From positions 1 through 63,876 of the forward strand of contig JBGPXN010000005.1 in assembly GCA_041492755.1 (NCBI GenBank): a DNA stretch of 63,876 bases, in the 5' to 3' direction. Of the stretch, positions 8,239 to 61,716 are shown one piece after another. Within the stretch, counting starts at the first letter, position 1; each line of letters opens with the position of its first letter. A program made the position numbers and the translations under genes. Under the pieces are notes generated by a model. It was not told the origin of the DNA, did no database searches, and saw only the letters and a list, made by a program, of their open reading frames with translations. The stretch is from Candidatus Methylomirabilia bacterium (GTDB lineage Bacteria > Methylomirabilota > Methylomirabilia > Rokubacteriales > CSP1-6).

Positions 8239-8246
8239 GGTGAGTT

Positions 8247-8276: not shown

Positions 8277-8316
8277 GTCTGCCGCGCGCGGCGGAGATGG
8301 CGGGCGCGAGACCAGG

Positions 8317-8517: not shown

Positions 8518-8519
8518 CA

Positions 8520-44056: not shown

Positions 44057-44252
44057 CAGTCGGGCCTCCGCGCGAGAAAGCATAGCGCGTTTCAAGCCCG
44101 CTGCGTTTGGTGATGAGCAGATGACCGCCGCGAATCGAGAGTAGCGGACGATGTCCGTTCCAGGGGGTCACCGGTTAGTGACCCGGAGAACTGCCGACTA
44201 GCGAATCCATGTCGTGTTGCCGTAAGAGCGCACCCATCTCGGAGAGAATGGT

Positions 44253-44520: not shown

Positions 44521-44591
44521 CAGCCGAAGAAGGCGATCCGCTCCTCTATCAGCCGTCCGCGTGCGCGATCACCAGGGCGGTGCTCGACACC
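44521..44591 (+). repeat. Two-piece remnant of top6B (duplicates 49562-49584 joined to 49652-49705)
   Basis: CAGcCGAAGAAGGCGaTCCGCT + CCTCTATCAGCCGTCCGCGTGCGCGATCACCAGGGCGGTGCTCGACACC matches two separate segments of the top6B fragment. Confidence 0.85.
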
Positions 44592-44627
44592 CGCGGATCA
44601 GCAGGCGCTCACGACCCGGATCACCCT

Positions 44628-45479
44628 TTACTTGATCGCCCCGGCGGTGAAGCCGGCGATGAAGCGGTCGACGAAGAAGTTGTAGAGGATGGCGATGGGC
44701 ACGCTGGCGATGAAGCAGCCGGCCATGAGCGAGCCCCAGAAGTAGACGTCGCCGCGCACCAGGAACGTCGGCACGCCGACGCTCACCGTGAAGTTCTGCG
44801 CCGCGGTGATGAAGGTCAGCCCGTAGACGAACTCCTGCATCACCAGGGTCAGGCTGAAGATGACGACGGTCAGGAGCCCGGCCACCGAGATCGGGATGAC
44901 GACCTTGACGAACGCCCCGAAGCGGCTGTAGCCGTCGATCATGGCCGCCTCTTCCAGGTCGCGCGGGATCGCCTTGAAGAAGCCCATCATGAGCCAGGTG
45001 CAGAAGGGCACCGTGAACGACGGATAGACGACCACCAGCGACCAGAGCGAGTCCTGGAGGCCGAGGTCGGAGACGACGCGCGCCATGGGCAGGAAGAGCA
45101 GCGTGGGCGGCACCAGGTACGTGAGGAAGATCGCGATGCCGAGGTGCTCGCCCCAGCGACCGGTCAATCGAGCCAGGGCGTAGCCGGCCGGCACCGCGAG
45201 CACGAGCGTGATCGCCACCACCACGGCGCCCACGAAGAGGGTGTTGCCGAGCCACCGCAGGTAGAGCGTGTCGAAGAAGAGCACGCGCAGGTTCTCGAGC
45301 GTGGGGGGATCGTTGTAGATGAAGGGGTTGTTGGCGTGCTTGAGCAGGTCGCTGGTCGTCTTGAACGTCGTGATCAGCATCCAGTAGAAGGGAAACGCGC
45401 TGAACACCGTGAAGAAGACCAGCACGGCGGCGTGGACGCTCCGTTCCGCCCACCGCCTGCCGGCGCCGGTCACGCTCAC
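44628..45479 (-). CDS. Carbohydrate ABC transporter permease (MalG-like)
   Basis: FPFYWM, EEAAMIDG (EAA motif), WGSLMAG. Confidence 0.92.
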   Translation of the reverse strand: MSVTGAGRRWAERSVHAAVLVFFTVFSAFPFYWMLITTFKTTSDLLKHANNPFIYNDPPTLENLRVLFFDTLYLRWLGNTLFVGAVVVAITLVLAVPAGYALARLTGRWGEHLGIAIFLTYLVPPTLLFLPMARVVSDLGLQDSLWSLVVVYPSFTVPFCTWLMMGFFKAIPRDLEEAAMIDGYSRFGAFVKVVIPISVAGLLTVVIFSLTLVMQEFVYGLTFITAAQNFTVSVGVPTFLVRGDVYFWGSLMAGCFIASVPIAILYNFFVDRFIAGFTAGAIK

Positions 45480-46384
45480 ACCACCTCGCTGCGGCGGGCC
45501 ACGCGCAGGAGCAGGATCGCCACGGCCACCAGCAGCGGGAAGAGAAAGACGGCCACCGCCGCCCCCTCGGCCACGTCGCCCGCCTGCACCCCGGTGAAGA
45601 AGGCCAGGCTCGCCAGCACCTGCGTGGTGTCGTAGGGCCCGCCCCGCGTCAGCACGAAGATGACGATCATGTCGGTGAACGCCAGCACGAGGCCGAAGAG
45701 TCCGGCCACCAGCATGATCGGGCGGATCAGCGGCAGCGTGATCTGGAACAGGTGGCGGAGGAAGCTCGCGCCGTCCATTTGGGCGGCGTCGTGGATGTCC
45801 TGGGGGATCGAGGTGAGCCCCGCCAGCAGGATCACGGTGGCCAGCGGCAGGATACGCCACACGTGGACGGTCACGATCGAGCCCATCGCCAGATAGGGAA
45901 CGCCGAGCCACATGAACCGGTCGCCGGGGCCGAGGAACCCCATCGCCTGCAGCGTCCAGTTGAGCACGCTGTAGGTGGAGTCGAGGATCCACAGCCACCC
46001 GATGGTGCCGAGCGAGATCGGCGCCACCCACGGCAGGAGGATGAGGAGGCGCACGAACCACTTCCCGCGGAAGTCCCTGAGGAGGGCGAGCGCGAGGATC
46101 GTGCCGAGCACCATCACGAGCACCTGCGCGGTGATGGCGAAGACGAACGTGTTGACGAGCGAGGTCTGGAACTTCGTGGTGCCCGCGACGCTGATGAAGT
46201 TCCGGAGCCCCACGAACCCCAGCGTGCGGCTCCCCATGCTGATGTCGCTCACGCTGTAATAGAGCGCCAGCACGAACGGCACCCCGATCAGCAGCACGAT
46301 GTAGAGCACGGCGGGCCCGATCATGAGCGGCCCGAGCCACTCCGGCCGGTCGAGGAGGGAGCCGCGACCTCCGCGATTCGTCAC
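45476..46384 (-). CDS. Carbohydrate ABC transporter permease (MalF-like)
   Basis: FVGLRNF, LAGLTSIPQDIHDAAQMDGA, LTRGGP. Confidence 0.92.
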   Translation of the reverse strand: MTNRGGRGSLLDRPEWLGPLMIGPAVLYIVLLIGVPFVLALYYSVSDISMGSRTLGFVGLRNFISVAGTTKFQTSLVNTFVFAITAQVLVMVLGTILALALLRDFRGKWFVRLLILLPWVAPISLGTIGWLWILDSTYSVLNWTLQAMGFLGPGDRFMWLGVPYLAMGSIVTVHVWRILPLATVILLAGLTSIPQDIHDAAQMDGASFLRHLFQITLPLIRPIMLVAGLFGLVLAFTDMIVIFVLTRGGPYDTTQVLASLAFFTGVQAGDVAEGAAVAVFLFPLLVAVAILLLRVARRSEVV

Positions 46385-47412
46385 AGCGCGCGCGGCGTCG
46401 TCCGGCGCCCGGTCTGCCGGTCGAAGAACTTGAGGTCTCGGACGGGCACGGCGAAGTCCTGGGTCTGGCCGACGACGACGGGCGTGGTCACCGTGGACGG
46501 CAGCCGCGCGATCACCTTGGCGTCGCGGAACCTGGCCGCCGGCGTGCCGTACACGAGCCGGTCGGCGCCCAGGTACTCCTGCCGCTGGACCTCGAGCGGC
46601 AGCGTCAAGAGCTCGCCGTCTTCCCGCTGGACCGCACGCGGCAGGAAGTGCTCGGGCCGGAAGCCCACCAGCACGTCGGGCCCGTCCACGAGGTTCATCG
46701 GCGGCGAGCCGAGGAATCCGGCCACGAAGGTGTCGGCCGGCTCGTCGTAGACCTCCGTGGGCGAGCCGATCTGACGCACCTTGCCGCCTTGCATGACGGC
46801 GATCCGGTCACCGAGGCCCATGGCCTCGACCTGGTCGTGCGTCACGTAGATGGTCGTGGTGGCGATGCGGCGCTGGAACTGCTGCAGCTCCTCGCGGGCC
46901 GAGGTCCTTAGCTTGGCGTCGAGGTTGGAGAGCGGCTCGTCGAGCAGGAACACCGCCGGCTCGCGAATCACCGCCCGGGCCAGCGCCACGCGCTGGCGCT
47001 CGCCGCCCGACAGCTGGCGCGGCTTGCGATCGAGCAGGCGCTCGATGCCGAAGAGCGAGGCGGCCCACTGCACCTTGCCCGGGATCTCCGCCCGCGCCAC
47101 GCCCTGCGCCTTGAGCGGGAAGGCGATGTTCTTGTACACGGTCAAGTGCGGATAGAGCGCGTAGCTCTGGAAGACCATGGCGATCTTCCGGGCGCGCGGC
47201 GGCAGATCGTTCACCACCTGCCCGCCGATGAGGATCTCGCCCGAGGTTGGACGCTCGAGCCCGGCCAGCATGCGTAGCAGGGTGGTCTTGCCGCAGCCCG
47301 ACGGGCCGAGCAGGACGAGGAACTCGCCTTCCTTGGTGGCGAGGTCCACGCCGTCCACGGCCCATACGTCACCGAACTGCTTTCTGACGTCCCTGGTCTC
47401 GACAGTGGCCAT
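46381..47412 (-). CDS. Carbohydrate ABC transporter ATPase (MalK-like)
   Basis: GPSGCGKTT, LSGGERQR, DEPLSNLD, THDQVEAM. Confidence 0.94.
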   Translation of the reverse strand: MATVETRDVRKQFGDVWAVDGVDLATKEGEFLVLLGPSGCGKTTLLRMLAGLERPTSGEILIGGQVVNDLPPRARKIAMVFQSYALYPHLTVYKNIAFPLKAQGVARAEIPGKVQWAASLFGIERLLDRKPRQLSGGERQRVALARAVIREPAVFLLDEPLSNLDAKLRTSAREELQQFQRRIATTTIYVTHDQVEAMGLGDRIAVMQGGKVRQIGSPTEVYDEPADTFVAGFLGSPPMNLVDGPDVLVGFRPEHFLPRAVQREDGELLTLPLEVQRQEYLGADRLVYGTPAARFRDAKVIARLPSTVTTPVVVGQTQDFAVPVRDLKFFDRQTGRRTTPRAL

Positions 47413-47472
47413 GCGTGAGAGCGAGCGGGCGGAGACCCCGGACGCCCCGAGGTCTCCGCCGCGCGCGGCGGG

Positions 47473-48816
47473 CTAGACCAGCCCCTTGTCCTTCCACTTG
47501 GCGAAGATGCGCTTGCAGGCGGCGTCGGCCTCCTTGAGCGCCTCCTCCGGCGAGGTGGAGCCGCTGGCCGCCTTGGCGAACATGACGTTCAGCACCCAGG
47601 TGCCGAAGATCTCGTCGATGGCCGCGGTGGCGTAGCCCGGGTAGCCGACGTTGGTGGCCCAGTTGAGCACGTCGTCGAGCACCTTGTACTTGGCGGGCGG
47701 GTGGGCCTTCGGGTCGCTGGCGATGAGCTTCTTCAGGTCGGGCACGGTCTTCTCGAAGCACGGGAAGTCGTAGAACTCGCCGGCGCGGAAGGCCTCGGCG
47801 AAGTTCGTCCCGTAGTCGACGAGGAACTTCTTGGCCCCGTCGATGTTCTCGGCGAACTTCCAGGTCACGTAGCACTGCATGACGTGCTCGAGCCCGATCG
47901 CCCGGACGGGCCCGCGCAGAGCCTTGGTGAGCTGGATCTTCTGCGAGATCTCGGGGTTGTCCTTCTCCGCGGTCCGGGTGATCGAGATGGCGTTGAGGGC
48001 CAGCGAGATGGTGCCGGCGATCATCGCCCGGTTGTTGGACGAGGCGTCCCAGGTGAAGACCTCGGGCGTCATCGTCTCGGTGAAGAGCGCCTTGACGAAC
48101 TTGACGGCCTCCAGCGTCTGCTTCGAATTCAGGGTCAGGTTCCCGTTCTGGTCCTGCTCGTGGGCGCCGAAGGCGTACATGATCGTGCGCATGGCCATCC
48201 CGGTGTCGATCTCGTTCGCGAGGCCGATGCCCACCGGAATGTTCCGCTTCTTCTTGATCTCCGCGCCCTTCTTCCGCACGTCGTCCCACGTCTTCGGACC
48301 GCCGGCCATCCCGACCTCGCCGAACAGGTCCTCGCGGTAGTTGACCGGGTCGGGGGTGAAGGACGGCGAGAAGGCGTAGTACTTCTTCGTCTTCGGGTTG
48401 TAGGTGCTCTTCACCGCGAGGTCGATCGGCTTGCCGAACTTCTTCTCGAGCTCCTGGTAAACGTCCTTCATGTCGACCGCCTGCTCCTCGAAGGACGGCG
48501 GCGGCCAGTTGAACATGAATAGATCGTGGCCCTTCTGGGCGGAGACCTCGGCGGCCGCGCGCGCGTTGAGGCCGGCCAGGCCGATGTTGTCGACGGTCAC
48601 CTCGGTGTCGTTCTTCTGCCCCCATTCCACGACGTACTTCTTGTTGAACCACTCGTCGTAGGCGGGGACGAAGTGCACCCACTGCAGGATCCGCAGCTTC
48701 TTGCTGGCCGCGCGCGCCAGGCGGGGCCGGCTCACGTGAGCCGCGACGCCCACCGCCAGCGCTCCGGTCCCGGTCGTTCTGAGGAAGTCTCGACGGTTCA
48801 CGGTGCCGTTACCCAT
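47473..48816 (-). CDS. Tat-exported carbohydrate ABC substrate-binding protein
   Basis: NRRDFL Tat signal; first gene of the ABC operon. Confidence 0.88.
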   Translation of the reverse strand: MGNGTVNRRDFLRTTGTGALAVGVAAHVSRPRLARAASKKLRILQWVHFVPAYDEWFNKKYVVEWGQKNDTEVTVDNIGLAGLNARAAAEVSAQKGHDLFMFNWPPPSFEEQAVDMKDVYQELEKKFGKPIDLAVKSTYNPKTKKYYAFSPSFTPDPVNYREDLFGEVGMAGGPKTWDDVRKKGAEIKKKRNIPVGIGLANEIDTGMAMRTIMYAFGAHEQDQNGNLTLNSKQTLEAVKFVKALFTETMTPEVFTWDASSNNRAMIAGTISLALNAISITRTAEKDNPEISQKIQLTKALRGPVRAIGLEHVMQCYVTWKFAENIDGAKKFLVDYGTNFAEAFRAGEFYDFPCFEKTVPDLKKLIASDPKAHPPAKYKVLDDVLNWATNVGYPGYATAAIDEIFGTWVLNVMFAKAASGSTSPEEALKEADAACKRIFAKWKDKGLV

Positions 48817-48971
48817 AGCTCCGCTCCTTTGTGGGTTGGGGTCGGCGGGGGATAGTTGATGTTATTACCCGCTCGGACCTCGCCGTGTCAAGGGGAGCCA
48901 CGTGCGGCATGCCGGGCGCCGCGCCGGGCGTCTACCGGCCGAGCGGCGGCTCGCCGTGACCGCCGGCGCGC

Positions 48972-49343
48972 TCAGGCGATTCGCTTGAAGGCGCGACTGA
49001 ACGCCGCCTCCGATTCGTAGCCGACCTCCAGCGCCACCGCGGAGACCTTGGCGGCGCCTTCGTCCAGCCGGCGGGCCGCCACCTGCATCCGCCAGTGGGT
49101 GAGGTACTGCATCGGCGGCTGGCCCACGAAATGCCTGAAGCGCTCCGCCAGGACCGAGCGCGACCCCCGACGTCACGCGCAAGCATATCCAGCGTCCAGG
49201 GATCGGCGGGCCGCCGGTGGAGCAGGGTCAGTGCACGCCCCACCAGCGGCTCCCGCAACCCCGCCAGCCAGCCCGTCTGCTCCGCGGGTAGCGTCGCGAG
49301 ATAGCGCCGTACGACCTCGACGAACATCAGCTCGCTGAGACGC
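48972..49343 (-). pseudogene. AraC-family regulator, C-terminal fragment with a frameshift
   Basis: RLSELMFVE...PWTLDMLARDVG, frame change near 49165-49175, then SVLAERF...PPMQYLTHWRMQ...VGYESEAAFSRAFKR. No N-terminus. Confidence 0.85.
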
Positions 49344-50034
49344 AGCTCTACAAGGCCATCCAGGCGACCAAGATCATGGCGCCGCCGACCAACTGCCTCT
49401 CGCCCATCGGCGAGCGGGCGCTCCTCGCCGGGCTGTATCGGCAGATCAAGGGCGAGTTCTACACGGCGGTGACCCGGCCGCCGGCCGTGTACCGCGGCAA
49501 CCCGTTCGTGATCGAGGCGGGGCTGGCCTTCGGGCGGGGGCCGGAGCAGGTCGCGCAGGCTCAGGCGAAGAAGGCGGTTCCGCTGGCCGAAGGCGAGGGC
49601 GAGAAGGACGATCACGAGCTTGCGCGGGTCATCCGGTACGCGAACCGCGTGCCCCTCCTGTATCAGCCGTCCGCGTGCGCGATCACCAGGGCCGTGCTCG
49701 ACACCACGTGGCGCAACTACGGCGTGGCGCAGTCCCGCGGGTCGCTCCCGGCCGGGCCGATGGTGATCTTCGTGCACATGGCCTCGGTGTGGGTGCCGTT
49801 CACCAGCGAATCGAAGGAAGCCATCGCCGAGTACGACGAGATCCACAAGGAGATCGCCCTGGCGCTGCGCGAGTGCGGCCGCCGGCTCGGCGCGTTCCTC
49901 CGACGACGCGAGCGGGCGCACAGCGAGTTCCGCCGGCGCAACATCTTCGAGCTCTACATCGACGAGATCGTCGAGTCGTGTAACCGGCTCAAGGGCGGGC
50001 GACTGGCCACCGCCAAGCTGAAGGACCAGCTCCG
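49337..50034 (+). pseudogene. top6B: DNA topoisomerase VI subunit B, internal/C-terminal fragment (transducer domain)
   Basis: MAPPTNCLSPIGE, RPPAVYRGNPFVIEAGLAFG, RYANRVPLLYQ, FVHMASVWVPFTSESKEAIA. The GHKL ATPase N-terminus is absent and the 3' end is cut. Confidence 0.92.
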
Positions 50035-50141
50035 CGAGCGGGCTCAAGTACGAGCTGGACGCCCTCGCGAACAAGGACTTCCAGTACCTCACCAAGCGCT
50101 ATCTGCCCCGCAAGCTCAAGGAGAAGGACGGGCTGGACTAG
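50035..50141 (+). repeat. top6A: 3' end of topoisomerase VI subunit A, copy 1 (att-like direct repeat)
   Basis: Encodes SGLKYELDALANKDFQYLTKRYLPRKLKEKDGLD*, which resembles the C-terminus of bacterial Top6A; fused directly to the top6B fragment. Confidence 0.8.
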
Positions 50142-50177
50142 CGCGACAGTCTGACGCTCTATAATCGTCCGGCAGCC

Positions 50178-51227
50178 ATGGCGAAGATCGAACTCCTCGA
50201 CGTCTGCAAGTCGCTCGACGCCTTCCACATCCGCGATCTGAATCTGACGATTCCCGACGGCCGCACTCTGGTGATCCTGGGGCCGAGCGGCTGCGGCAAG
50301 ACGACGCTCCTGAGGATCATCGCGGGGCTGATCGACCCGGACTCGGGTCGCATCCGCTACGACGGCGTGGACGTCAAGGACACCGCGCCGGGTGCGCGGA
50401 GGATCGGCATGGTCTTCCAGAACTATGCGCTGTATCCCCACATGGATGCGCGCACCAACGTCCTCTCCTACTTCCTCTTCAGGAAGAAGACCCCGGAGCT
50501 GGACGCGCTCAAGGCGGCGAAGTACCGGCGGACCAGCGAGCTCATGGGCGTCGAGCTCGAGCATCTGCTGGACCGAAAGCCACCCACGCTGTCGGGCGGA
50601 GAGAAACAACGCGTGGCCGTCGCGCGCTGCATCACCAGGGACCCGGCGCTTTTTCTGCTGGATGAGCCGTTCTCGAACCTGGATCAGGCGCTGCGAGAAA
50701 AATATCGGGTCAGCCTGAAGATCCTCCTGAAGCAGTTCGACATCACGACCGTGTACGTCACGCACGACCACTACGAGGCCATGATCCTGGCCGATCTGCT
50801 CGCCATCATGGATCGCGGCCGGATCGAGCAGGTCGGCACCTACGAGGAGATCTACGACCGCCCCCGGAATGCGTTCGTCGCGGGCTTCCTCAACCGCCAC
50901 GTCGGGATGCCGCCGATCAGCTTCATCGCCGCCAAGGACACCGCGCAGTCACGCGTGCTCGGCGACGTGCTGGTGGGCGCGCGGCCCGAAGACGTCGAGG
51001 TGTCTCGAGAGGAACGCCCGGGCGCGACCCGAGGCGTCATCGACGCCAGCGTTGACCTGCCGTTCGTCAACGCCACGATGCTCAGCATCCGCATAGGCAC
51101 GCACGAGCTCCACGCGCAAGCCGGCGGCAGCGAGCGTTTTCGCCCCGGCGACGCGGTGTGGGTGACTTTCGCGCGCTTTCACATGTTCGACGAGTCGGGC
51201 ACGAGGCTGGGCACTCGCCCGAAATGA
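50178..51227 (+). CDS. MalK-like ABC transporter ATPase
   Basis: GPSGCGKTT, LSGGEKQR, DEPFSNLD; TATAAT upstream. Confidence 0.92.
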   Translation: MAKIELLDVCKSLDAFHIRDLNLTIPDGRTLVILGPSGCGKTTLLRIIAGLIDPDSGRIRYDGVDVKDTAPGARRIGMVFQNYALYPHMDARTNVLSYFLFRKKTPELDALKAAKYRRTSELMGVELEHLLDRKPPTLSGGEKQRVAVARCITRDPALFLLDEPFSNLDQALREKYRVSLKILLKQFDITTVYVTHDHYEAMILADLLAIMDRGRIEQVGTYEEIYDRPRNAFVAGFLNRHVGMPPISFIAAKDTAQSRVLGDVLVGARPEDVEVSREERPGATRGVIDASVDLPFVNATMLSIRIGTHELHAQAGGSERFRPGDAVWVTFARFHMFDESGTRLGTRPK

Positions 51228-51287
51228 TCCGTTCCTGCGCGGAGTACCCTCCCGCTTACAGTAGGAGGCACGAGGTCATCGGGCTCT

Positions 51288-51394
51288 CGAGCGGGCTCAA
51301 GTACGAGCTGGACGCCCTCGCGAACAAGGACTTCCAGTACCTCACCAAGCGGTATCTGCCCCGGAAGCTCAAGGAGAAAGACTGGCTGGACTAG
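51288..51394 (+). repeat. top6A: 3' end of top6A, copy 2
   Basis: 107 bp with 4 mismatches to copy 1 (3 synonymous; W instead of G), ending ...KEKDWLD*. Confidence 0.85.
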
Positions 51395-51436
51395 CCCAAC
51401 TTCCACGCGCGCCGAGTGGGAGAGCCCACGCGGCGA

Positions 51437-52099
51437 TTACTCCACGAGCAGGAGGCGCTCACCGAGCGCGTTCAGGTCGGCGATGAAGCGGTTGCAATCG
51501 GGAGGGTCGCTCCACCGGACCAGCCGCCAGTCGTCGTTCGTGACCGTCAGCAACACGCGCGCGATGTCTGCCGGGAAGAGTCCCTCGGCCTTGCTGTGAG
51601 CAGCTTCGAGCGCCGCCTCGCACGAAAGATTCATGCGGCAGCAGAATCCCCAGACGTCGGCAAGATCCTTGGGCTCGCGCCGATCCACGACGGCCGTCAG
51701 CTTGTTCGCGAGGATGTTCTCGGGGCTGTCGAGCCGCCCGAGAACGGGATGAATGTGGATTGCGCCGACATGCGCGGGGACGTCGTCGATCATGTCGAGC
51801 TTCAGGATGACGTCGGCGGCCGTCACGTTGACGCGAACGAGCCGATCGTCACGCTGCAGCACGTCCACCTGCCAATCGGCGCGCTCGGCGATCGCATGGA
51901 TGACACGCTGCGACCACAGACCGAAGCGCGCATCGTCGTTCACGAAGAGGTCGAGATCGTCCGAGAACCGATGGTGGAGATATCCGCGAGAGGCCGCCGT
52001 CCCACCCGTCAAGTAGAAGTCCGTTTCGACCGACGCCACTCGAGCGAGGACCGCGTCCTGCAGGGGATACATGCGGTCGAAGAAGAAGGTACGGTCCAT
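51437..52099 (-). CDS. AbiEii-family nucleotidyltransferase (type IV TA toxin)
   Basis: FYLTGGTAASRGYLHHRFSDDLDLF, ILANKLTA..DRREPKDLADVW. Confidence 0.9.
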   Translation of the reverse strand: MDRTFFFDRMYPLQDAVLARVASVETDFYLTGGTAASRGYLHHRFSDDLDLFVNDDARFGLWSQRVIHAIAERADWQVDVLQRDDRLVRVNVTAADVILKLDMIDDVPAHVGAIHIHPVLGRLDSPENILANKLTAVVDRREPKDLADVWGFCCRMNLSCEAALEAAHSKAEGLFPADIARVLLTVTNDDWRLVRWSDPPDCNRFIADLNALGERLLLVE

Positions 52100-52116
52100 C
52101 CCGTGGGCAGCGGGCA

Positions 52117-52401
52117 CTACACGAGGTGTGGGCGATGTTCGGGCAGCCAGGCGACGAGGAAGTCGAGCCCGCGGCGGCGGGTCTCGGATCGTACCCGTGC
52201 TCGCCACTCAGGCCAACCTCTCACGAGATCACGGAAGCCGAGCCAGCGCACGATTTCCCGGTAGGGCGCGTACTCCAGTACGCGAACGGCCGCCCACGTC
52301 CGATCAAGACGGCCGAGGGTGATCTCTCCGGCAAGCAGGCGTCGAAAGGTCGCCTCGTCGATGTCGTAGTCCCACACGAATGGAAGTCGATCCGCACCCA
52401 T
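52117..52401 (-). CDS. Small putative antitoxin upstream of AbiEii
   Basis: 94 aa, FVWDYD..WAAVRVLEYAP; co-oriented just upstream of the toxin. Confidence 0.75.
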   Translation of the reverse strand: MGADRLPFVWDYDIDEATFRRLLAGEITLGRLDRTWAAVRVLEYAPYREIVRWLGFRDLVRGWPEWRARVRSETRRRGLDFLVAWLPEHRPHLV

Positions 52402-52477
52402 GGGATCGATCGTATACGATCCTGGCCGAGGTCGTCCCTCTCTTGGCTTGCGAGAGGGGTGCCTCTTGAGCTCGGGG

Positions 52478-55400
52478 TCAGCGGATCGACCGGAGCTGCC
52501 CCGATCCCGCTGCCCGGCCGGTCACGTCGCCGACGAAGGTCTCCTCCAGGGGCTGGCCACGGTTGCCGAAGCCGGTTGCCCACAGCTCGATCTGGAAGGC
52601 CGAGCCGGTCGAACGTCCGACGTACCAGTTGCCCGTCAGGCGATCGTGGACGATCGCGTCCGCCTTGCCATCCCCCGTCAGGTCGGCGACGAAGACTTCC
52701 TCGACGGTCGGGCCGCGGTTGCCGAAGCGGGAGACCCAGGGCTCGATGGTGAAGCTGGCGCCGGTGGAGCGGCCGACGTACCAGTCCCCGGTCTGGATGT
52801 CGTGGATGACGGCGTCGGCGGAGCCATCACCGGTCACGTCCGCGACGAAGACTTCCTCCACGGCCGGGCCACGGTTGCCGAAGCGCGTGATCCACTGCTC
52901 GATGGTGAAGCTGGCGCCCGTGGAGCGGCCGACGTACCAGTCGCCGGTCTGGACATCGTGGATGACGGCGTCGGCGCGGCCGTCGCCGGTCACGTCGGCG
53001 ACGAAGACTTCCTCGATAGTGGGACCACGGTTGCCGAAGCGGGCGACCCAGTGCTCGATTTCGAAGCGCGTGCCGGTGGAGCGGCCGACGTACCAGTCGC
53101 CGGTCTGGACGTCGTGGATGACGGCGTCGGCGCGGCCGTCGCCGGTGACGTCGGCGACGAAGACTTCCTCGAGGGCGGGACCACGGTTGCCGAAGCGCGC
53201 GACCCAGTGCTCGATGGCGAAGCTGGCGCCGGTGGAGCGGCCGACGTACCAGTCGCCGGTCTGGACGTCGTGGATGATGACGTCGGCCCGACCGTCGCCG
53301 GTGACGTCGGCGACGAAGACTTCCTCGAAGTCGGGTCCACGATTGCCGAAGTTCGAGACCCAGTGCTCGATCTCGAAACTGGTGCCGGTGGAACGGCCGA
53401 CGTACCAGTCGCCGGTCTGGACGTCGTGGATGACCGCGTCGACCTTGCCGTCGCCGGTGACGTCGGCGAGGAAGACCTGCTCGGTGGCGGGCCCACGATT
53501 GCCGAAACGGGAGACCCAGCGCCCGATGTCGAGGCTGGAGCCGGTGGAGCGCCCGACGAACCAGTCGCCGGTCTGGGCGTCGTGGATGATGGCGTCCGCC
53601 CCGGGGTCGATGGCGAAGCTCGCGCTGACGGCAACTGCCGCCGTCACCGTGACCGTACACGACCCGGTGCCGCTGCAACCGCCTCCAGTCCAGCCGGCGA
53701 AGCTCGAGCCCGCGGTCGCGGTGGCGGTCAGCGTCACCGAGGTGCCGCTGGTGAAGGAGTCGGAGCACGCGGGAGGGCACGCGATACCTGACGGTGACGA
53801 CGCCACCGTCCCGCTGCCGGAACCCGGCGTGCTCACCGAGAGCGCGAACGATGACACCGGGGTGACGGGGGCGAACGACGCGAACACCGAGGTGGCCGCG
53901 CCGACGGTGACGCTGCACGAGCCCGTGCCGCTGCAGCCGCCGCCCGTCCAGCCGGTGAAGCTCGAGCCCGCGGCCGCGGTGGCGGTCAAGGTGACCGACG
54001 TGGCATTGCCGTACGTCTGGGCGCAGTCCGCGCCGCAGTTGATTCCCGGGGCCGACGACGCGACTGTCCCGGCGCCGGCGCCCGCTCTGATCACCGTGAG
54101 CGTCGCCGCCGGAGGCGGAGTGTTCTCCGTCCCGTAGATGCGGAGCGACCAGCTGTCCCAGGTGCCGACGTCCACGGCCGCCCGGTCGGCGACACGCAGC
54201 GTCCAGTTGCCATCGGCCGGCTCGCCCCAGTGGCGCACCGACGTGAAGACCCAGGCCGAGAAGTTGTCGCCGCTATCGGCCGATCGGACGGTCGCCAGAC
54301 GACTCATCGTGCCCGAGGGCGACGTCAGCGTGACCTCGAGGTCGCCCCGATACGGATGCGTCGCGCTGAACACCACCTCCACGTGCTCGACCTGAAAGCC
54401 GGCATGTCCCGCGATGGTGATCGTATCGGTGCGTCCGCTGGCGTCGTTGTCCGGGATGCCGAGGTTGACGTTGTGAGTCACCGCGGGGATCGCCACCTCG
54501 GGACCGACGCCGGGCCACTGGCCGGCGAGATTGACGGCAGCGGCCGCGTCGATGAGGCCGAAGCCGAAGCGCTCGTTGTGCGGGAAGGCCCCGGTCGTCC
54601 AGCCGGCATCCGCCGGCTGGACCTTCACGGCGGTCCGGACCAGAACGTGCTTGACGTCCCGCCAGGTGAGGTTGGGATTCTGGGCCAGCATCAGCGCGAT
54701 CGTCCCGGACACCAGGGGCGTGGCGGAGGAGGTTCCGCCGAACGTGCTCGTGTAGTCGGACGCGCTGTAGCCGTTGCCGCCGACGAGATCGGTCGTGGTG
54801 ATGCCGCGGCTGCCGCCGCTCGACCCGGCGGTCACGAACATCGCCGAGCAGGCCTCGCTGTACGAGGCCGCCTGTCCGGTGTCGGCCAGCGCGCCGACGG
54901 CGATCACGTAGCGGTTGTTCGCGTACCCGTCGAAGTTGCAGTTGTCGCCGGATCCACCGTTGCCGGCGGCCCACGTGAAGATCCGGCCCCGACCGTTGCG
55001 CCCGGTCGTGATCGCGTTCGCGATGGAGGCCAGCGTGAGCGGACCCGGTCCCTCCAGCGTGCGTCCGTCGTCCGACGGTCCCCAGGAGTTGCTCGCGATG
55101 TGGATCGCGTCGGCCATGTAGCCGAGGGCATCGGCCTCCTGCTGGTCGGACGTCGGCGCCGCGATGAGACGCAGCCCGGCCAGTGTGGCCAGGGGCGCGG
55201 CGCCGCTCACGCCGAGGCCGTTGTCGCCGCGGGCGGCCGCGATGCCCGCCACCGCGGTGCCGTGAAAGTCGACGGACAGGGTCGGACTGGGATCGGCGTC
55301 GTTGAAGTTGAAATCGAACGACAGCGCGCTCGAGTAGTTCGAGACCAGGTCCGGGTGAGTGTGCTGCAGGCCGTCGTCGACGATGCCGATCACGATGCCG

Positions 55401-55618
55401 GCGCCCAGTGTCGTGGTCCACGCCGCCCGGGCGTCGGCGCCGGCCGTCTCCTCGGCGCGCGATTTCAGATGCCACTGGTTTTCCAGCAGCGTATCGGGGG
55501 CGGCGAACGCAGGGAGCACCCACAGCACGAGCGCGAGGCCGACGAGCAAACGTGTCGGCAAGCGGCCGGCCGCGAAGAGTCCGTCCCCGCGGCGAGCGCG
55601 TGGCCGGGCGAGCTTCAC
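52478..55618 (-). CDS. Secreted kexin/furin-like S8 serine protease + P-domain + two bacterial repeat (InlB-B/Flg_new-like) domains + 7 x 52-aa C-terminal repeats
   Basis: Catalytic D (IVDDG), H (HGTAVAG), oxyanion N (AAGNG), S (GTSSATP); P-domain HPYRGDL...GNWTLRVAD; repeats VTLTATAAAGSSFTGWTGGGCSGTGSC. Confidence 0.93.
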   Translation of the reverse strand: MKLARPRARRGDGLFAAGRLPTRLLVGLALVLWVLPAFAAPDTLLENQWHLKSRAEETAGADARAAWTTTLGAGIVIGIVDDGLQHTHPDLVSNYSSALSFDFNFNDADPSPTLSVDFHGTAVAGIAAARGDNGLGVSGAAPLATLAGLRLIAAPTSDQQEADALGYMADAIHIASNSWGPSDDGRTLEGPGPLTLASIANAITTGRNGRGRIFTWAAGNGGSGDNCNFDGYANNRYVIAVGALADTGQAASYSEACSAMFVTAGSSGGSRGITTTDLVGGNGYSASDYTSTFGGTSSATPLVSGTIALMLAQNPNLTWRDVKHVLVRTAVKVQPADAGWTTGAFPHNERFGFGLIDAAAAVNLAGQWPGVGPEVAIPAVTHNVNLGIPDNDASGRTDTITIAGHAGFQVEHVEVVFSATHPYRGDLEVTLTSPSGTMSRLATVRSADSGDNFSAWVFTSVRHWGEPADGNWTLRVADRAAVDVGTWDSWSLRIYGTENTPPPAATLTVIRAGAGAGTVASSAPGINCGADCAQTYGNATSVTLTATAAAGSSFTGWTGGGCSGTGSCSVTVGAATSVFASFAPVTPVSSFALSVSTPGSGSGTVASSPSGIACPPACSDSFTSGTSVTLTATATAGSSFAGWTGGGCSGTGSCTVTVTAAVAVSASFAIDPGADAIIHDAQTGDWFVGRSTGSSLDIGRWVSRFGNRGPATEQVFLADVTGDGKVDAVIHDVQTGDWYVGRSTGTSFEIEHWVSNFGNRGPDFEEVFVADVTGDGRADVIIHDVQTGDWYVGRSTGASFAIEHWVARFGNRGPALEEVFVADVTGDGRADAVIHDVQTGDWYVGRSTGTRFEIEHWVARFGNRGPTIEEVFVADVTGDGRADAVIHDVQTGDWYVGRSTGASFTIEQWITRFGNRGPAVEEVFVADVTGDGSADAVIHDIQTGDWYVGRSTGASFTIEPWVSRFGNRGPTVEEVFVADLTGDGKADAIVHDRLTGNWYVGRSTGSAFQIELWATGFGNRGQPLEETFVGDVTGRAAGSGQLRSIR
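52520..53607 (-). repeat. Intragenic tandem repeat, about 7 units of 156 bp
   Basis: Units DVTGDG.ADA.IHDVQTGDWYVGRSTG.SF.IE.W..RFGNRGP..EEVFVA. Confidence 0.92.
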
Positions 55619-56325
55619 CGCGGCAGGCGGAGACGCTTCAGCAATGGATAGGCGGTCCGCACGCCGGGCTGTCCGCGAAGCGCGTCGGCGAGGGCGACGG
55701 CAGCGAGGGGATCATCGCCCTCGACCACGAAGGCGTCAGGCACGCTGCCGACGGGCCTGAGGGCCTTTCCGCCAAGACCCGACGTCACCGGTGTGGGATC
55801 GCGGCCCGGCTTCATGACCACGGCAACCTCGGTGGTCAGCAGGCGGCGCGTGGCCTCTGTCCGGGGTGCCCGCGCCTCGTACAGGACCAGGTGCACGGCG
55901 GCGCCCGGATTGAGTGCGCGCAGGGCAGCGGCTTCAGCGGTCAGGGCCGCGGAGTCCGGCACGCCTGCCAGGGCGACCCGGGTCCGGGCGGGATCCTGGC
56001 CCATGACGGTCGCCCGCGGGGTCATGGCCGCGGCCAGGCCGGGGCCGCGGGACTTGGCCTGGGGATCGCCAGACCAGTCGATTTCGACCTCGTCGAGGGC
56101 CAGCTCGAACGTCCGACGGTCCGGCACGTGGAGGTCGAGAAGGGCGCCGGGCTGTGCTGCGGCCCCGAGGACCTGCGTCAGCAGCAGCACGGGCAAGGCC
56201 AGCGCGAGAACCCTCGGCGGCCTGCGCGGGGATGACCGCCCAGAACGGCCGGCGGCGCATGTCAGGGAATCCAGGCGAGAGCTGCCGCCCGGGCTCATAT
56301 GAACCGTGAGGATACCTCCCGTCAT
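55615..56325 (-). CDS. Secreted protein resembling a stand-alone S8 pro-domain (start uncertain)
   Basis: Own hydrophobic signal (VLALALPVLLLTQVLGAAA); ends ALADALRGQPGVRTAYPLLKRLRLPR; stop codon overlaps the S8 GTG start. Confidence 0.65.
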   Translation of the reverse strand: MTGGILTVHMSPGGSSRLDSLTCAAGRSGRSSPRRPPRVLALALPVLLLTQVLGAAAQPGALLDLHVPDRRTFELALDEVEIDWSGDPQAKSRGPGLAAAMTPRATVMGQDPARTRVALAGVPDSAALTAEAAALRALNPGAAVHLVLYEARAPRTEATRRLLTTEVAVVMKPGRDPTPVTSGLGGKALRPVGSVPDAFVVEGDDPLAAVALADALRGQPGVRTAYPLLKRLRLPR

Positions 56326-56401
56326 CGACGCGTCATCTGTTATTCGTGCCAGGCGCCTCCCCGGATCTCGGTTGACGGTCAGGCACGCCCGGCGGTGTGA
56401 T

Positions 56402-56433
56402 CCGCAAGCTCAAAGAGAAAGACTGGCTGGACT
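56402..56433 (+). repeat. top6A: 3' end of top6A, copy 3 (32-bp core)
   Basis: CCGCAAGCTCAAAGAGAAAGACTGGCTGGACT; 2 synonymous mismatches to copy 2; the stop TAG is replaced by TGG. Confidence 0.8.
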
Positions 56434-56446
56434 GGAACCGGGCGGA

Positions 56447-57022
56447 TCAGGGGAGAAGATCGGCGACGCTGATCCGGGCGTGGGGCGCGGCCAGCGGACT
56501 CACGCTGTCGCGCGGGCCGAACACCGCCACCTCGCCGTAGTCCCACCCGTACGGCGCCGGCGGCGAGGGCGTCGGCGCCCGGCGAACCTCGAGCACGCTG
56601 TCGACCAGGTTGACGATCCAGTACTCCGGGCGGCCCGCGCGGGCGTAGAGGCTCGACTTGTACCGGCGGTCCAAGGTGAAGCTCGAGAGCGTGACCTCCA
56701 CCACGAGCACCGGAGCGGCCGGATGCGCCCGAGCATAGTCACGGAGATCGCCCCGCACGACCGCCACGTCCGGCTCGGGCACTGATGCCTCGTCGAGCGC
56801 GATCGGCCCCTGGGTACGAACGGTCCAGCCGTCCCCGAAGGCGCGTTGCAACGCCCGCTCGACGAGCTTGATGGCGGTGTAGTGCCGTGAGCTCTGCGGC
56901 TCGGCGACGACGAGCAGGCCGTCGATCAGCTCGATCCGGTCCTCCGTCGTGAAGACGCCCTGCTCGACGAGCGCCTCGTACTCGACGCGCTTCCACCGCT
57001 TGAGCTCGAGCTCGGTTTCCAT
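56447..57022 (-). CDS. Uma2-family (DUF820) putative restriction endonuclease
   Basis: IELIDG, PEPDVAVV, LVVEV..SS..LDR, YWIVNL; paralogue of 7555-8130. Confidence 0.9.
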   Translation of the reverse strand: METELELKRWKRVEYEALVEQGVFTTEDRIELIDGLLVVAEPQSSRHYTAIKLVERALQRAFGDGWTVRTQGPIALDEASVPEPDVAVVRGDLRDYARAHPAAPVLVVEVTLSSFTLDRRYKSSLYARAGRPEYWIVNLVDSVLEVRRAPTPSPPAPYGWDYGEVAVFGPRDSVSPLAAPHARISVADLLP

Positions 57023-57159
57023 GGCTGTTCCTTCACCCCGAACTGTAGTCACTGACGGATGAGCCGTCAATGTCGCGAAAGCGTGACTGTGGCCGGACGG
57101 TGACACTCGCGGAACAGTGACGGCTGCCCGCTCGGAGACGAGGATGCTCGAAGACGAGG

Positions 57160-57501
57160 TATCTGCGCGCGCTGCTGTCGATCGACCCGGGAGACGCCGA
57201 CGTGCGTGCGATGAGCCCGGCGCAGCGGCGCGGTGAGACCTTCGAGGCGCTCCGGCGCCTGCTCGTTCACGCGGGCCAGCAGCGGCCGCGAGTGCTGGTG
57301 ATCGAGGACCTGCACTGGATCGTGGGCCTCGGCCATCTCGACGCGGCGCGGGGCCGGCGTGAAGAGGCGCGCGAGCACTATCGGGCGGCGTGGGCGATCA
57401 TCTCGGGGCTGCGCGCACGCACTCAGGATCCCGAGCTTCGTGCCGGGCTTCTGTCTTCACCCTTGATCCTCGAAGTCGAGGACCTGGCGCGGCGGGGATA
57501 G
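57160..57501 (+). pseudogene. Internally deleted remnant of an AAA-ATPase/TPR (cyclase-STAND-like) gene
   Basis: TFEALRRLL...RPRVLVIEDLHWI is fused in frame to a C-terminal TPR end (GLGHL..ARGRREEAREHY...); no start or Walker A. Confidence 0.75.
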
Positions 57502-57509
57502 CGCATGAC

Positions 57510-57914
57510 TCACGCCGGCTCGGCGGCGCTGAAGACGTGGGAGGCGTGGTGGTGGACCATGCGCCAGCCGTCGGCCGACCGCTCGAACAGATTCGTCGCC
57601 AGCACCGACGTGACCGAGACTCGATCGGCCACCTGGCCCAGGATGTTCTCGGTGCACGTCACCCAGCCCAGATCCCCGCGCACGGCGACGACGAGGTCCG
57701 AGATGGTGAACCGCATCTCGGCGGTGTTGGCGAAGATGGTCTCCCACGAGTCGCGGACCGCCTCCCATCCGCTCAGCAGCGGCCAGCCCGGGTGCACGCA
57801 CCGCGCATGCTCGGCGTGCAGCCACACCGCGGCCATCTCGGCGAGATCGAGGGTCTCGAACGCGCGATAGAACCGCGCGTTCGCCTCCGCGACCTCCTGC
57901 TCGTCGCTAATCAC
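57510..57914 (-). CDS. SnoaL/NTF2-like protein
   Basis: ANARFYRAFETLDL..MAAVW, CVHPGW..L.G, ATNLFER....WRMVHHHAS. Confidence 0.88.
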   Translation of the reverse strand: MISDEQEVAEANARFYRAFETLDLAEMAAVWLHAEHARCVHPGWPLLSGWEAVRDSWETIFANTAEMRFTISDLVVAVRGDLGWVTCTENILGQVADRVSVTSVLATNLFERSADGWRMVHHHASHVFSAAEPA

Positions 57915-58270
57915 GTCGCGGCGCAGGACACGACGAGGGTGTCGGCCTCGAGCCGGGCGGGCAGGGGTGTGAGCCGATCGCCGGCGCAGGGGCCGCCGGT
58001 GCACAGCCCGGTGGCCGGCTCGAACGTCGCGCCGTGGGTCGAGCACACGAACTCGCGCCCGTCCTCGGCGAGGAACTCGTTCGGCCAGAGATCGAGCGGC
58101 GTCCCGACGTGGGGGCAGCGGTTCACGTACGCGGCGTAGCCGGTCGCGTGATGGACGACGAAGCCCTCCACCCCACGGTCGCCGCAGCCGAGCCGGAACT
58201 TCGCGGTGGCGCCGGCGGGCACGGCCGACGCGGGACAGCGCCACTCGGCGGAGGCCGTCATGAGCCGCAT
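57911..58270 (-). CDS. Rieske 2Fe-2S ferredoxin-like protein
   Basis: NRCPH and CSTHGATF (CxH...CxxH), TG.C.GGPC. Confidence 0.9.
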   Translation of the reverse strand: MRLMTASAEWRCPASAVPAGATAKFRLGCGDRGVEGFVVHHATGYAAYVNRCPHVGTPLDLWPNEFLAEDGREFVCSTHGATFEPATGLCTGGPCAGDRLTPLPARLEADTLVVSCAAT

Positions 58271-58284
58271 GGTAGCATCGGCCC

Positions 58285-59227
<943 letters not shown>

Positions 59228-59244
<17 letters not shown>

Positions 59245-60022
59245 GCTGGAGGCGGTGTGGGCCTTCGTGGTCCGCAATCTGCTCATGGCCTCCCGCAACG
59301 TCTTCTTCTTCTTCGAGCTGCTCTTCTGGCCGGTGGTCGGCGTGCTCTCGATCGGGCTGATGACGCGGTTCCTGCACCTCGACGCGGCGCAGACGTCCTT
59401 CGTGCTCATCGGGACCATCGCGCTCTCGGTGATCAACGTGTGCCAGCTCGAGGTCGCCTACGCGGTGCTCTACGACGTCTGGAGCAAGTCGGTGAAGCAC
59501 CAGTTCCTGGCCCCCATCGGCGTCCGCCATTTGACGCTCGGCTCGTGGCTGGTGGGCATCCTGCGCGGCGTGCTGATCTTCATCATCCTCGCGCTGATCG
59601 CCCGCTGGGCGTTCGGCTTCGACCCGTTCCGCGGCGGCGTCACCGCGCTGGTCGTGTTCCTGATCGGCTGCTTCCTGACCGCCTGGGTGGTGGGCGTGTT
59701 CGTCTGCGCGCTCATCACGCTGGCCGGCAGCCGCGCCGAGGCCTTCGCGTGGGCGACGGTCAACCTCGTGCTCGTGCTGGCCGGCATCTACTATCCGGTG
59801 TCGATCCTGCCTCCGCCCGTGGCCGCGATCGCCTCCGCGATCCCGCTCACGTATTTCCTGGACGCCTACCGCGTCCACTTCGGCTTCACCTCCGAGTTCG
59901 CCCGGCCCATCGCCATGGGGTTCGCGCTGTCGGCGCTGTATGCGGTCCTCAGCCACTGGGCGTTCGTGGCCGCCGTCCGGCGGGCGCGCTACTCGGGGCT
60001 GCTGCTCAAGATGTCCGAGTAA
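59228..60022 (+). CDS. ABC-2-type permease
   Basis: Six TM segments, AGIYYPVSILP, IPLTYFLD; overlaps the ATPase. Confidence 0.88.
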
Positions 60023-60248
60023 GCGGCTGGATTGGTTCCAGAAGGAGTTCGGCGACCTGCGGGCCTGGCCCGCGTCCACTCGATAGCGCCCGCGTCCGGC
60101 GCGTTCTCGCGCCACACCGCGCCGTCGCCCTGATCCCCCACACCGGGGCCGCGCTCGATGTACACTGCGTGACGACCCGGCGCGAGCGGCGGGAGCGATG
60201 GAAACGGGCTCCCGAAGGGCCGGAATCCGCGAAATACGGAGAAGATAG

Positions 60249-61082
60249 ATGGCAGCGATCGGCGTGTTGAATCCGGGAGACATGGGAAGCGCGGTGGGCG
60301 CGGCCGCACGGGCAGCCGGGGCCCGCGTGCTCTGGGCGTCGGCCGGCCGCAGTGCGGAGACGCACGCGCGCGCCCGGGCCGACGGGCTCGAGGACGCGGG
60401 CACGCTCGCGCGGCTGGTGGGCGAGAGCCAGATGATCGTCGCCGTATGCCCGCCGGCGTCGGCGCTCGACCTGGCGCGGCAGGTCGGGGCGCTTGGTTTT
60501 CGCGGCACCTACGTGGACGGCAACGCCGTCGCGCCCGAGACGGCGCGCAAGATCGGCGACCTCGTGACGGCCGCGGGCGCCACCTTCGTCGACGGCGGCA
60601 TCATCGGCCCGCCGCCCCGCCGGCCAGGGACGACGCGCCTCTACCTCTCCGGCCCCGGCGCCCGTAACGCGGCGGTCCTGTTCAGCGGCAGCATGCTCGA
60701 GGCGATCCCGGTGGACGGCCCCGTCGGAGCGGCCTCCGCGGTCAAGATGGCGTACGCCTCCTGGACGAAGGGCTCGCACGCGCTCCTGATGTCCGTGCGC
60801 GCGCTCGCCGCGCACGAGGGCGTGGACGACGTGTTGCTGGCCGAGTGGGCGCGCTCGCAGGCGGATCTTCAAAAGCGCTCGGAGCAAGCGGTGGCCTCCA
60901 ACGCGCGCAAGGCCTGGCGCTTCGTCGGCGAGATGGAAGAGATCGCCGCGACGTTCCGCGCGGCCGGGCTGCCCGACGGCTTCCACGAAGCCGCGGGGGA
61001 GATCTATCGCCGCCTGGCGGGCTGGAAGGACACGCCCACGCCGCCTTCGGTGGCCGAGGTCTCGAAGACGCTCGCGCCCTGA
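60249..61082 (+). CDS. NAD(P)-dependent oxidoreductase (6PGDH NAD-binding + DUF1932-like)
   Basis: IGVLNPGDMG, FVDGGIIG.PP, ASAVKMAYASWTKG, AWRFVGEMEEIA. Confidence 0.87.
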   Translation: MAAIGVLNPGDMGSAVGAAARAAGARVLWASAGRSAETHARARADGLEDAGTLARLVGESQMIVAVCPPASALDLARQVGALGFRGTYVDGNAVAPETARKIGDLVTAAGATFVDGGIIGPPPRRPGTTRLYLSGPGARNAAVLFSGSMLEAIPVDGPVGAASAVKMAYASWTKGSHALLMSVRALAAHEGVDDVLLAEWARSQADLQKRSEQAVASNARKAWRFVGEMEEIAATFRAAGLPDGFHEAAGEIYRRLAGWKDTPTPPSVAEVSKTLAP

Positions 61083-61105
61083 GGCTTACGGGGCCATCGA
61101 ACGGC

Positions 61106-61672: not shown

Positions 61673-61716
61673 CGGTCACCCCTTCCGCAACGAACGCGTC
61701 CTGCCCACGTTGCGTC

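Follow-up and report, generated by a model that had tools for sequence, protein, structure and literature searches.

The window analysed here, a stretch of 63,876 nt that makes up one whole contig (C231) of a metagenome-assembled genome (MAG; 329 contigs, 88 % complete) of Candidatus Methylomirabilia bacterium, a soil bacterium of the Rokubacteria, contains three copies of the 3' end of top6A, a topoisomerase VI gene, separated by blocks of genes unrelated to top6. An earlier note on this DNA, made from the sequence alone, had taken these copies for the traces of a candidate integration system targeting top6A. Our analysis shows that the locus is the wreck of a top6B-top6A operon and not a live top6A target with its cargo, and that the scar looks like the outcome of recombination at a gene end rather than of a dedicated integrase system. 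The reading that we favour, at a probability of about 0.5, is that cassettes entered by recombinase-less insertion with long target duplication, in which stretches of top6 served as the homology arm, and that the operon subsequently decayed.

Copies of the top6A end and the wrecked operon

To describe the copies, the codons and residues of the ends are numbered after the 366-amino-acid (aa) Top6A of relatives, and the operon of genome G010 (top6B at 6596-8473, 1878 nt; top6A at 8483-9583) is used as the anatomical reference. Copy 1 (50035-50141, + strand; G010 9477-9583) comprises 107 nt, namely codons 332-366 and the stop, and carries Gly in place of a conserved Trp. Copy 2 (51283-51394, +; G010 9472-9583) comprises 112 nt, codons 331-366 and the stop, and encodes an intact peptide, while copy 3 (56402-56433, +) is a 32-nt piece with codons 356-366 in which the stop TAG has become TGG. 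A repeat finder reported 50035-50147 and 51288-51400 as a direct repeat of 113 nt at 95 % identity and also returned copy 3; in a second comparison, copies 1 and 2 match over 108 nt with 4 mismatches. When up to 3 mismatches were allowed, the 32-mer was found 3 times in the window versus 0.00 times expected from 100 shuffles, in line with the description of three same-strand direct repeats in the earlier note. The end peptide of the copies reads ...SGLKYELDALANKDFQYLTKRYLPRKLKEKDWLD* and aligns with positions 142-170 of PF21180, the Toprim domain of Top6A/Spo11, at an E value of 1.5e-4, which lies below the cut-off. The peptide of copy 2 and the final 36 residues of the relatives' 366-aa Top6A share 94-100 % identity, and the two matches together uphold the assignment of the peptide as the Top6A C-terminus. 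Copy 2 sits within a 56-aa open reading frame (ORF; 51224-51394), the first 20 residues of which are unrelated to Top6A.

The differences among the copies are mostly silent. Of the 4 mismatches between copies 1 and 2, 3 are synonymous and the remaining one replaces Trp by Gly in copy 1. Between copies 2 and 3 there are 2 differences, both of them synonymous as first reported, and copy 3 has additionally lost its stop. For the top6 copies in the window overall, this amounts to 8 synonymous differences out of 10, with 1 non-synonymous change and 1 stop loss. Copies 1 and 2 are identical at 101 of 105 positions, and either is identical to its nearest counterparts in other genera at 100 of 105. 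Because of this synonymous bias, and because the distance between the copies equals their distance to other genera, they do not behave as dead duplicates drifting in place. The substitution pattern thus shows that the end copies derive from different alleles once under selection, that is, functional, as had been supposed. No tRNA or Rfam family was detected at or near the repeats, and the DNA or RNA there has no significant hairpin potential (z from -1.05 to +0.87). Judged by eye only, the repeats bear no resemblance to a dif/Xer-like or attC-like site. Features of integron cassettes are likewise missing, in that there is no tyrosine recombinase on the contig and the repeat is coding sequence with no significant hairpin (same range of z), although no formal attC model was applied.

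Copy 1 had been read as closing a top6A gene. The preceding ORF is, however, a fragment of top6B (49292-50033, +), a pseudogene that retains the transducer domain only (PF09239, E 1.6e-55), is truncated at both ends and is joined out of frame (+1) to top6A codon 332 at a common GCTC. Positions 49355-50033 correspond to G010 7511-8189, or nt 916-1594 of the 1878-nt top6B, so that the part encoding the GHKL ATPase and the 3'-terminal 284 nt are absent. Between this fragment and copy 1, 1,287 nt are gone, comprising the end of top6B and 90 % of top6A. In relatives, the open frames across the top6B match are 589-754 aa long, and the top6 fragments of the window are 80-100 % identical to the top6B-top6A operons of Rokubacteria, Nitrospirota, Binatia and Deltaproteobacteria. 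A fourth top6 fragment, which does not figure in the first account, is an internal top6B remnant at 44520-44591 (+). Its 54-nt core (44538-44591; G010 7808-7861) repeats 49652-49705 with 51 of 54 positions identical and all 3 differences synonymous, and a weaker 16-nt match joins 44520-44535 to 49561-49576 of the main top6B fragment. Lying 5 kb apart, the remnant and the main fragment form a direct repeat that brackets a sugar-type ABC transporter operon. On its upstream side, the main top6B fragment is abutted by a fragment of an AraC-type (HTH_18) regulator gene (48932-49290, -), a frameshifted pseudogene where an HTH_18 gene of 46-51 aa is called on contigs of the Joint Genome Institute (JGI).

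Across the MAG, searches for a TP6A_N domain (PF04406), another Top6B or additional top6A ends were all negative. Features of a functional topoisomerase VI are missing from it, as there is neither a TP6A_N winged helix with the catalytic tyrosine nor a complete Toprim domain (only positions 142-170 of PF21180), and the search for a full-length Top6B returned only the transducer domain (PF09239) and no GHKL ATPase. All that is left of topoisomerase VI here is thus the Top6B transducer region plus the final 11-36 codons of Top6A.

The structure of the window is real and not an artefact of assembly. Gap-free collinearity at 99.9 % identity is seen for three JGI metagenome contigs, each from a different sample, over 42178-55370, 46643-51325 and 48723-52711. 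A contig of an NCBI MAG (GCA_041496405.1) matches collinearly over 53263-63876, and a Logan contig over 53405-58100, both at 99.8 %. All junctions of the window are reproduced, since these five independent assemblies span them collinearly. A chimera, in which strains were joined at the conserved top6A end, would be in keeping with the 329-contig MAG from which the sequence comes and with the breaks that short Logan contigs show within copy 2. Yet five contigs assembled separately from different samples and sources cross all junctions gap-free at 99.8-99.9 %, which makes such a chimeric or collapsed assembly, a concern raised at the outset, exceedingly improbable.

Displaced ends in other genomes and metagenomes

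We then asked how often such ends recur, sampling 84 top6 loci and 251 Rokubacteria genomes together with a protein search over 5.8 billion sequences. The top6A end is carried by 104 of the 251 Rokubacteria genomes, several of which have two on one contig. Outside this group, a MAG of the Syntrophobacteraceae (locus L055), in a phylum where 1 of 401 genomes has the end, possesses an intact top6A followed, 650 bp on, by a second copy of residues 330-366. The insert between the two encodes a 63-aa ORF and a DUF2204-type nucleotidyltransferase, an arrangement resembling a toxin-antitoxin pair. In a second locus, which like the next two comes from the Rokubacteria genomes (L130, genome G187), the operon is intact and a second copy of residues 330-366, together with 30 nt beyond the stop, lies 9.3 kb downstream. 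The intervening island has a GC content of 60 % versus 70 % in its flanks and contains genes for a nonribosomal peptide synthetase-like (NRPS-like) protein, a phosphopantetheinyl transferase and acyltransferases. In a third (L131), the second end copy begins at residue 288 and is accompanied by one dehydrogenase gene, one PIN gene and three Uma2 genes (783-1373, 5580-6191 and 6231-6809). Uma2 genes recur beside top6A ends, with 1 in the window, 3 in L131 and 1 each in L049, L135 and L136.

The fourth case (L132; G021:C70, 8047-11084) differs in that the insert lies within top6A itself. Here codons for aa 146-309 are followed by genes for a DUF222-HNH endonuclease and a PIN protein and then by codons for aa 260-366, and some 150 nt (aa 260-309) are duplicated on either side of the insert. 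The same contig also bears a third top6A piece (aa 272-366) at 178-462. We note that genome G040 carries a second, frameshifted top6B-top6A (L137; G040:C19, 8196-11272) in addition to an intact operon on another of its contigs.

The protein search, which used the 56-aa ORF around copy 2 as query and returned only proteins of 31-98 aa, identified 114 short proteins that end in the Top6A tail. Classes of 37 aa and 94 aa were considered as orphan ends and set aside, being mostly start-codon calls at contig edges. The tail follows an unrelated N-terminus in 45 short proteins; 10 of these apparent junctions proved to be frameshifted top6A and were removed, leaving about 30 independent true junctions by our own grouping, which was based on a common foreign N-terminus. 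One short protein from JGI data (P0098, 82 aa) is a RelE-annotated ORF ending in the Top6A tail and may represent a further toxin-antitoxin cassette that abuts a displaced end.

Two orphan ends also sit on long contigs that have no top6 gene in the vicinity. In one, a contig of the Binatia (L168), the end lies between genes for TctA and an amidohydrolase; in the other, represented by L169-L171, it directly follows a 63-aa ORF and a DUF2204 gene. The cassette and end of L169 are 88.7 % identical to the insert of L055 over 709 nt, junction included, and a remnant of about 70 nt of the top6A end and spacer precedes the cassette. Given this identity and the upstream remnant, L169 has the L055-like arrangement after deletion of the operon, the same fate as that of the window, and comparison of the two indicates that cassette and end persist as one unit. 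The possibility that no other genome would show duplicated top6A ends or variable cargo, raised in the earlier note, is thus dispelled by L055, L130, L131, L132 and the roughly 30 metagenomic ends.

Relatives otherwise have a single top6A end, and homology between them ends at its stop codon in ten congeners of L130 as well as in four other genera. In the L130 genus, the ten species share top6A at 88-97 % identity and keep their synteny upstream of top6B, but in none of them does homology continue past the stop codon. Since homology ends at the stop and the upstream order is kept, the top6A end is the edge of a hypervariable region. An empty site for L130 was not found, as none of the 10 congeners is collinear with it downstream of top6A. 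The operon itself has been described as sporadic in bacteria and prone to horizontal transfer (PMC11302465). In line with this, we find it at 75-90 % protein identity in Rokubacteria, Nitrospirota, Binatia, Deltaproteobacteria and Elusimicrobia (L020-L099), and such a patchy yet highly conserved distribution suggests frequent transfer.

Breakpoints and proposed mechanism of insertion

Where the extra copies begin bears directly on how they arose. Their first residues are 224, 260, 272, 288, 330, 330, 331 and 356, and the roughly 30 metagenomic junctions are spread over aa 298-344. Taken together, the breakpoints cover codons 224-356 with a soft peak only at 327-333, those outside it falling at residues 224, 260, 272, 288, 298-326 and 335-356. 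Every displaced 3'-end copy extends to the stop codon, the exception being the upstream half of the interrupted gene in L132 (aa 146-309); such a pattern would be expected if only events that preserve the gene persist. Internal pieces of top6A (in L132) and of top6B (at 44.5 kb in the window) are duplicated likewise.

No tyrosine or serine recombinase (PF00589, PF00239) was found anywhere on the contig, in agreement with what had been noted for the window. Similarly, Pfam scans of the window ORFs (42-63.5 kb) and of the predicted genes of L130, L131 and L132 turned up no recombinase, and for L168 and L169 none is listed in their precomputed gene tables; the integrases that the earlier note proposed to look for next to displaced copies were thus not found in these loci. 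About 7 tyrosine recombinase genes are present elsewhere in the source genome; the contigs that carry integrases have no top6A end. Searches of plasmids and phages (tblastn with the 37-aa end) and of IMG/VR (a degenerate 30-nt pattern) gave no hits. With no recombinase, no end on a mobile element, broad breakpoints, internal duplications and a dead target gene, the proposal of a dedicated top6A-targeted integration system is not supported, and the fallback offered with it, homology-facilitated recombination at top6 anchors, fits better.

We therefore favour insertion with long target duplication through top6. In such a process, foreign DNA in which a stretch of top6 lies beside cargo would recombine with the resident operon through that stretch, probably when a circularised fragment integrates by one Campbell-type crossover, and each event would leave the cargo between two copies of the common stretch. 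A stretch reaching the stop codon would keep the upstream gene whole and leave a dead, displaced end downstream, as in L055 and L130, whereas an internal stretch would break the gene, as in L132 and for the top6B pieces of the window. Repeated events would stack copies from different alleles, and the window may record at least three of them: one that placed the sugar ABC operon between the top6B pieces, a second that put end copies 1 and 2 on either side of the MalK-like gene, and a third that placed the genes for AbiEii, the S8 protease and a 236-aa ORF between copies 2 and 3. By their substitutions, the pieces assembled in the window stem from at least three once-functional top6 alleles. Later deletions would then have taken the rest of the operon and spared the ends, both here and in L169. 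The circular intermediate, the reliance on homologous recombination of the host and the order of events are what we infer from these arrangements.

Scars of this type are already known; of most note here are their appearance in several lineages and the soft hotspot at codon 330. Nobusato et al. (2000) are reportedly the source for insertion with long target duplication. Described insertions of this kind have direct target duplications of 30-500 bp, lack mobility genes and arise by a mechanism that is unknown (PMC2853133), and recombination between the repeats has been proposed to allow their amplification and release (PMC2853133; Furuta, Abe & Kobayashi 2010). The present loci resemble them in having cassettes of less than 20 kb (inserts of 650 bp to 9.3 kb), direct repeats longer than 30 bp (107/112 and 32 nt in the window) that are slightly diverged, no transposase or integrase, and cargo of the defence or addiction type. 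They are unlike them in their genes, since the described cases carry restriction-modification systems and those found here encode an ABC ATPase, AbiEii, an S8 protease, NRPS, nucleotidyltransferase, PIN, Uma2 and HNH proteins, and also in that a single gene end recurs as the target in several lineages, with three copies stacked in one place. A collinear empty-site genome, which for a long target duplication would prove that the target was single-copy, was not among the genomes compared here.

Two other kinds of system leave comparable marks. Prophage e14 at icd of E. coli, and ICESt1/ICESt3 and the integrase-less cis-mobilisable elements (CIMEs) at fda of Streptococcus thermophilus, insert by means of an integrase and carry a replacement for the gene end. 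As in our loci, repeats of the end flank the insert and differ as alleles do, and tandem stacking and integrase-less derivatives are known there. In contrast, no integrase was found in the loci that we examined, the breakpoints extend over more than 100 codons and internal fragments are duplicated; furthermore, the target gene, which a carried end keeps intact in L055 and L130, is destroyed in the window. At Rhs, contact-dependent inhibition (CDI) and type VI secretion system (T6SS) effector loci, incoming ends displace old ones, presumably by homologous recombination in the conserved part, and orphans pile up downstream. There, however, the displaced pieces are variable functional toxin tips with immunity genes, whereas here a conserved part is displaced and the cargo is unrelated. 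We found no paper linking top6A to integration.

Several observations weigh against insertion with long target duplication through top6. Four junctions from three lineages coincide to within about 7 nt at '(GC)ATG|CTC' (codons 330-332; Met330-Leu331): the joint of top6B with copy 1, the point where copy 2 begins, and the beginning of the extra copy in L055 and in L130. This coincidence is independent, because the L055 copy resembles its own allele and not those of Rokubacteria. Of the roughly 30 metagenomic junctions, about 10 lie at 327-333 versus about 4.5 expected by our own estimate, which assumes a uniform spread, and a homology process acting on random fragments does not predict such a hotspot. 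Neither nucleotide conservation nor DNA structure accounts for it; an island of conservation, considered as its cause, was rejected as the end scores 0.79-0.84 versus 0.75-0.89 across the gene. In addition, the identities of gene body and gene end co-vary among congeners (r = 0.84), with no clear case of end replacement, and the mere 32 nt of homology in copy 3 are short for RecA-type recombination unless the copy was trimmed later. Finally, neither a circular form nor an empty site or a variant in the population turned up. All contigs found have the same arrangement, including those from look-ups with the MalK-like, AbiEii and 236-aa proteins for variants lacking a block; two of the look-ups returned no contig at all. 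We also observed that contigs carrying protein P0012 (L172-L177), drawn from four or five unrelated metagenome assemblies, start 0-19 nt before Met330, which is what would be seen if the assembly graph branched at this point owing to a repeated end in the populations sampled.

A site-specific explanation, along the lines of the earlier note, would have elements with a carried replacement 3' end integrate at a core around codons 330-332. The blocks would then be remnants lacking an integrase, or cis-mobilisable elements piled up by accretion, and the recombinase would be encoded elsewhere. The '(GC)ATG|CTC' joint at four junctions in three lineages, the soft enrichment at codons 327-333 and the metagenome contigs starting 0-19 nt before Met330 would all follow, as would the same-strand end repeats flanking cargo in the window, L055 and L130; the lower GC of the L130 island (60 % vs 70 %), cargo rich in toxin-antitoxin and nuclease genes and the roughly 7 tyrosine recombinase genes elsewhere in the genome are also in its favour. 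We nevertheless consider it unlikely, given that no recombinase was found in or beside the loci examined and that the top6A end is found neither in phages, plasmids and IMG/VR nor elsewhere in the source genome. Many breakpoints lie off the hotspot (codons 224-326 and 335-356), some blocks measure merely 650 bp or 1.1 kb, and internal duplications of top6A and top6B cannot arise from an attachment site at the 3' end. A soft hotspot with no recombinase would also follow if a site-preferring endonuclease borne by the cassette, Uma2 or HNH, cut near the top6A end and repair from a foreign template copied the cargo and duplicated the target. Uma2 genes do recur beside top6A ends (the window, three in L131, L049, L135 and L136) and a DUF222-HNH gene lies within the interrupted top6A of L132. 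The islands of L055 and L130, though, contain no nuclease gene, classical homing leaves its target unduplicated, and we know of no cleavage specificity for Uma2 proteins, so this route seems distinctly less probable still. Purely local decay, with segmental duplications of a single resident top6BA, deletions and drift but no foreign alleles, would suit an operon that is plainly degraded, and G040 does hold a frameshifted extra copy of top6BA. It is hard to reconcile with 8 of 10 differences being synonymous, which is unexpected of neutrally drifting dead duplicates, with copies as distant from each other as from other genera, or with cargo blocks unrelated to top6, and we regard it as very unlikely.

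Insertion with long target duplication could be extended to a more speculative scheme, to which we give little credence at present. The last ~110 nt of top6A might act as a portable 'address tag' for recombinase-less cassettes, pairing with the resident end with a preferred joint at Met330-Leu331 and spreading across phyla, in which case the soft hotspot would mark an initiating enzyme or DNA feature. A unit of cargo and end could then enter any genome with topoisomerase VI, and would have spread over Rokubacteria, Syntrophobacteria, Binatia and Nitrospirota because the operon is so conserved, bringing with it toxin-antitoxin pairs, nucleases, and transport and biosynthetic genes.

Irrespective of this scheme, the loci provide a well-documented case of gene gain that involves no transposase or integrase, with multiple copies, several lineages and long duplications of a gene end. 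They make the topoisomerase VI operon the boundary of a hypervariable region that gathers defence-type and other cassettes, and the final codons of top6A can persist as fossils after the operon itself is gone. Should a real initiating activity underlie the hotspot at codon 330, it would offer a testable entry into the movement of cassettes that have no recombinase; otherwise, the scar is one of ordinary recombination, and the window contains only the remnants of a dead topoisomerase.

Cargo, neighbouring genes and other repeats

The sugar-type ABC transporter operon between the top6B pieces (44628-48816, -) encodes two BPD_transp_1 permeases, an ABC ATPase and a solute-binding protein, as judged from translations and from the precomputed Pfam matches of the identical JGI contig. 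The block between copies 1 and 2 measures 1.15 kb and holds an orphan, apparently intact gene for a MalK-like ABC ATPase (50178-51227, +; ABC_tran and a weak TOBE_2 match). The block between copies 2 and 3, of 5.0 kb, begins with an AbiEii-family nucleotidyltransferase toxin gene (51437-52207, -; PF08843, E 5e-13), overlapped by a 120-aa ORF with no Pfam match. Upstream of the AbiEii gene is a 94-aa ORF (52117-52401, -), a possible antitoxin for which the JGI contigs have no Pfam family on record. There follow a gene for a secreted S8 subtilase with a P-domain and FG-GAP repeats (52478-55618, -) and a 236-aa ORF (55615-56325, -) with no family match. Pfam thus bears out the MalK-like ATPase, AbiEii and S8 protease identified previously, but not the 'pro-domain' assigned to the 236-aa ORF, which matches no Pfam family. 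In the C-terminal half of the S8 protease, 52517-53596 consists of 6-7 tandem FG-GAP-type repeats of 156 nt (52 aa) at 78-81 % identity.

Downstream of copy 3 lies a gene for a Uma2-family (PD-(D/E)xK) nuclease (56447-57106, -). Homologues with 53-55 % identity closely follow top6A in four other Rokubacteria loci, and sequence comparison suggests that the gene of the window is possibly the original neighbour of top6A. Apart from these Uma2 homologues (53-55 %), none of the cargo genes of the window was found beside top6A in some 120 fetched loci. Further along the contig, a 596-aa ORF (61717-63507, -) and an adjacent 188-aa ORF (61106-61672) have no Pfam match and a slightly lower GC content of 0.63-0.68.

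A genome-wide self-BLAST of the source genome (G000) revealed many short direct repeats, most of which belong to a REP-like element or to paralogs and neither generalise nor explain the top6 case. This element, a dispersed repeat resembling repetitive extragenic palindromes (REP) or miniature inverted-repeat transposable elements (MITE), is about 60-120 nt long, translates as ...SERWGVWGAISGPP... and occurs on many contigs at 85-97 % identity, for example at C1:5806-5870/7015-7079 and C209:7328-7438/22545-22655 and on C121, C237 and C110. In addition, a 171-nt fragment of the leucyl-tRNA synthetase gene (KMSKS region) is present at both ends of an 8.9-kb contig (C315:172-342 and 8759-8929) at 98 % identity, and may be either another gene-fragment duplication or strain variation affecting the assembly.

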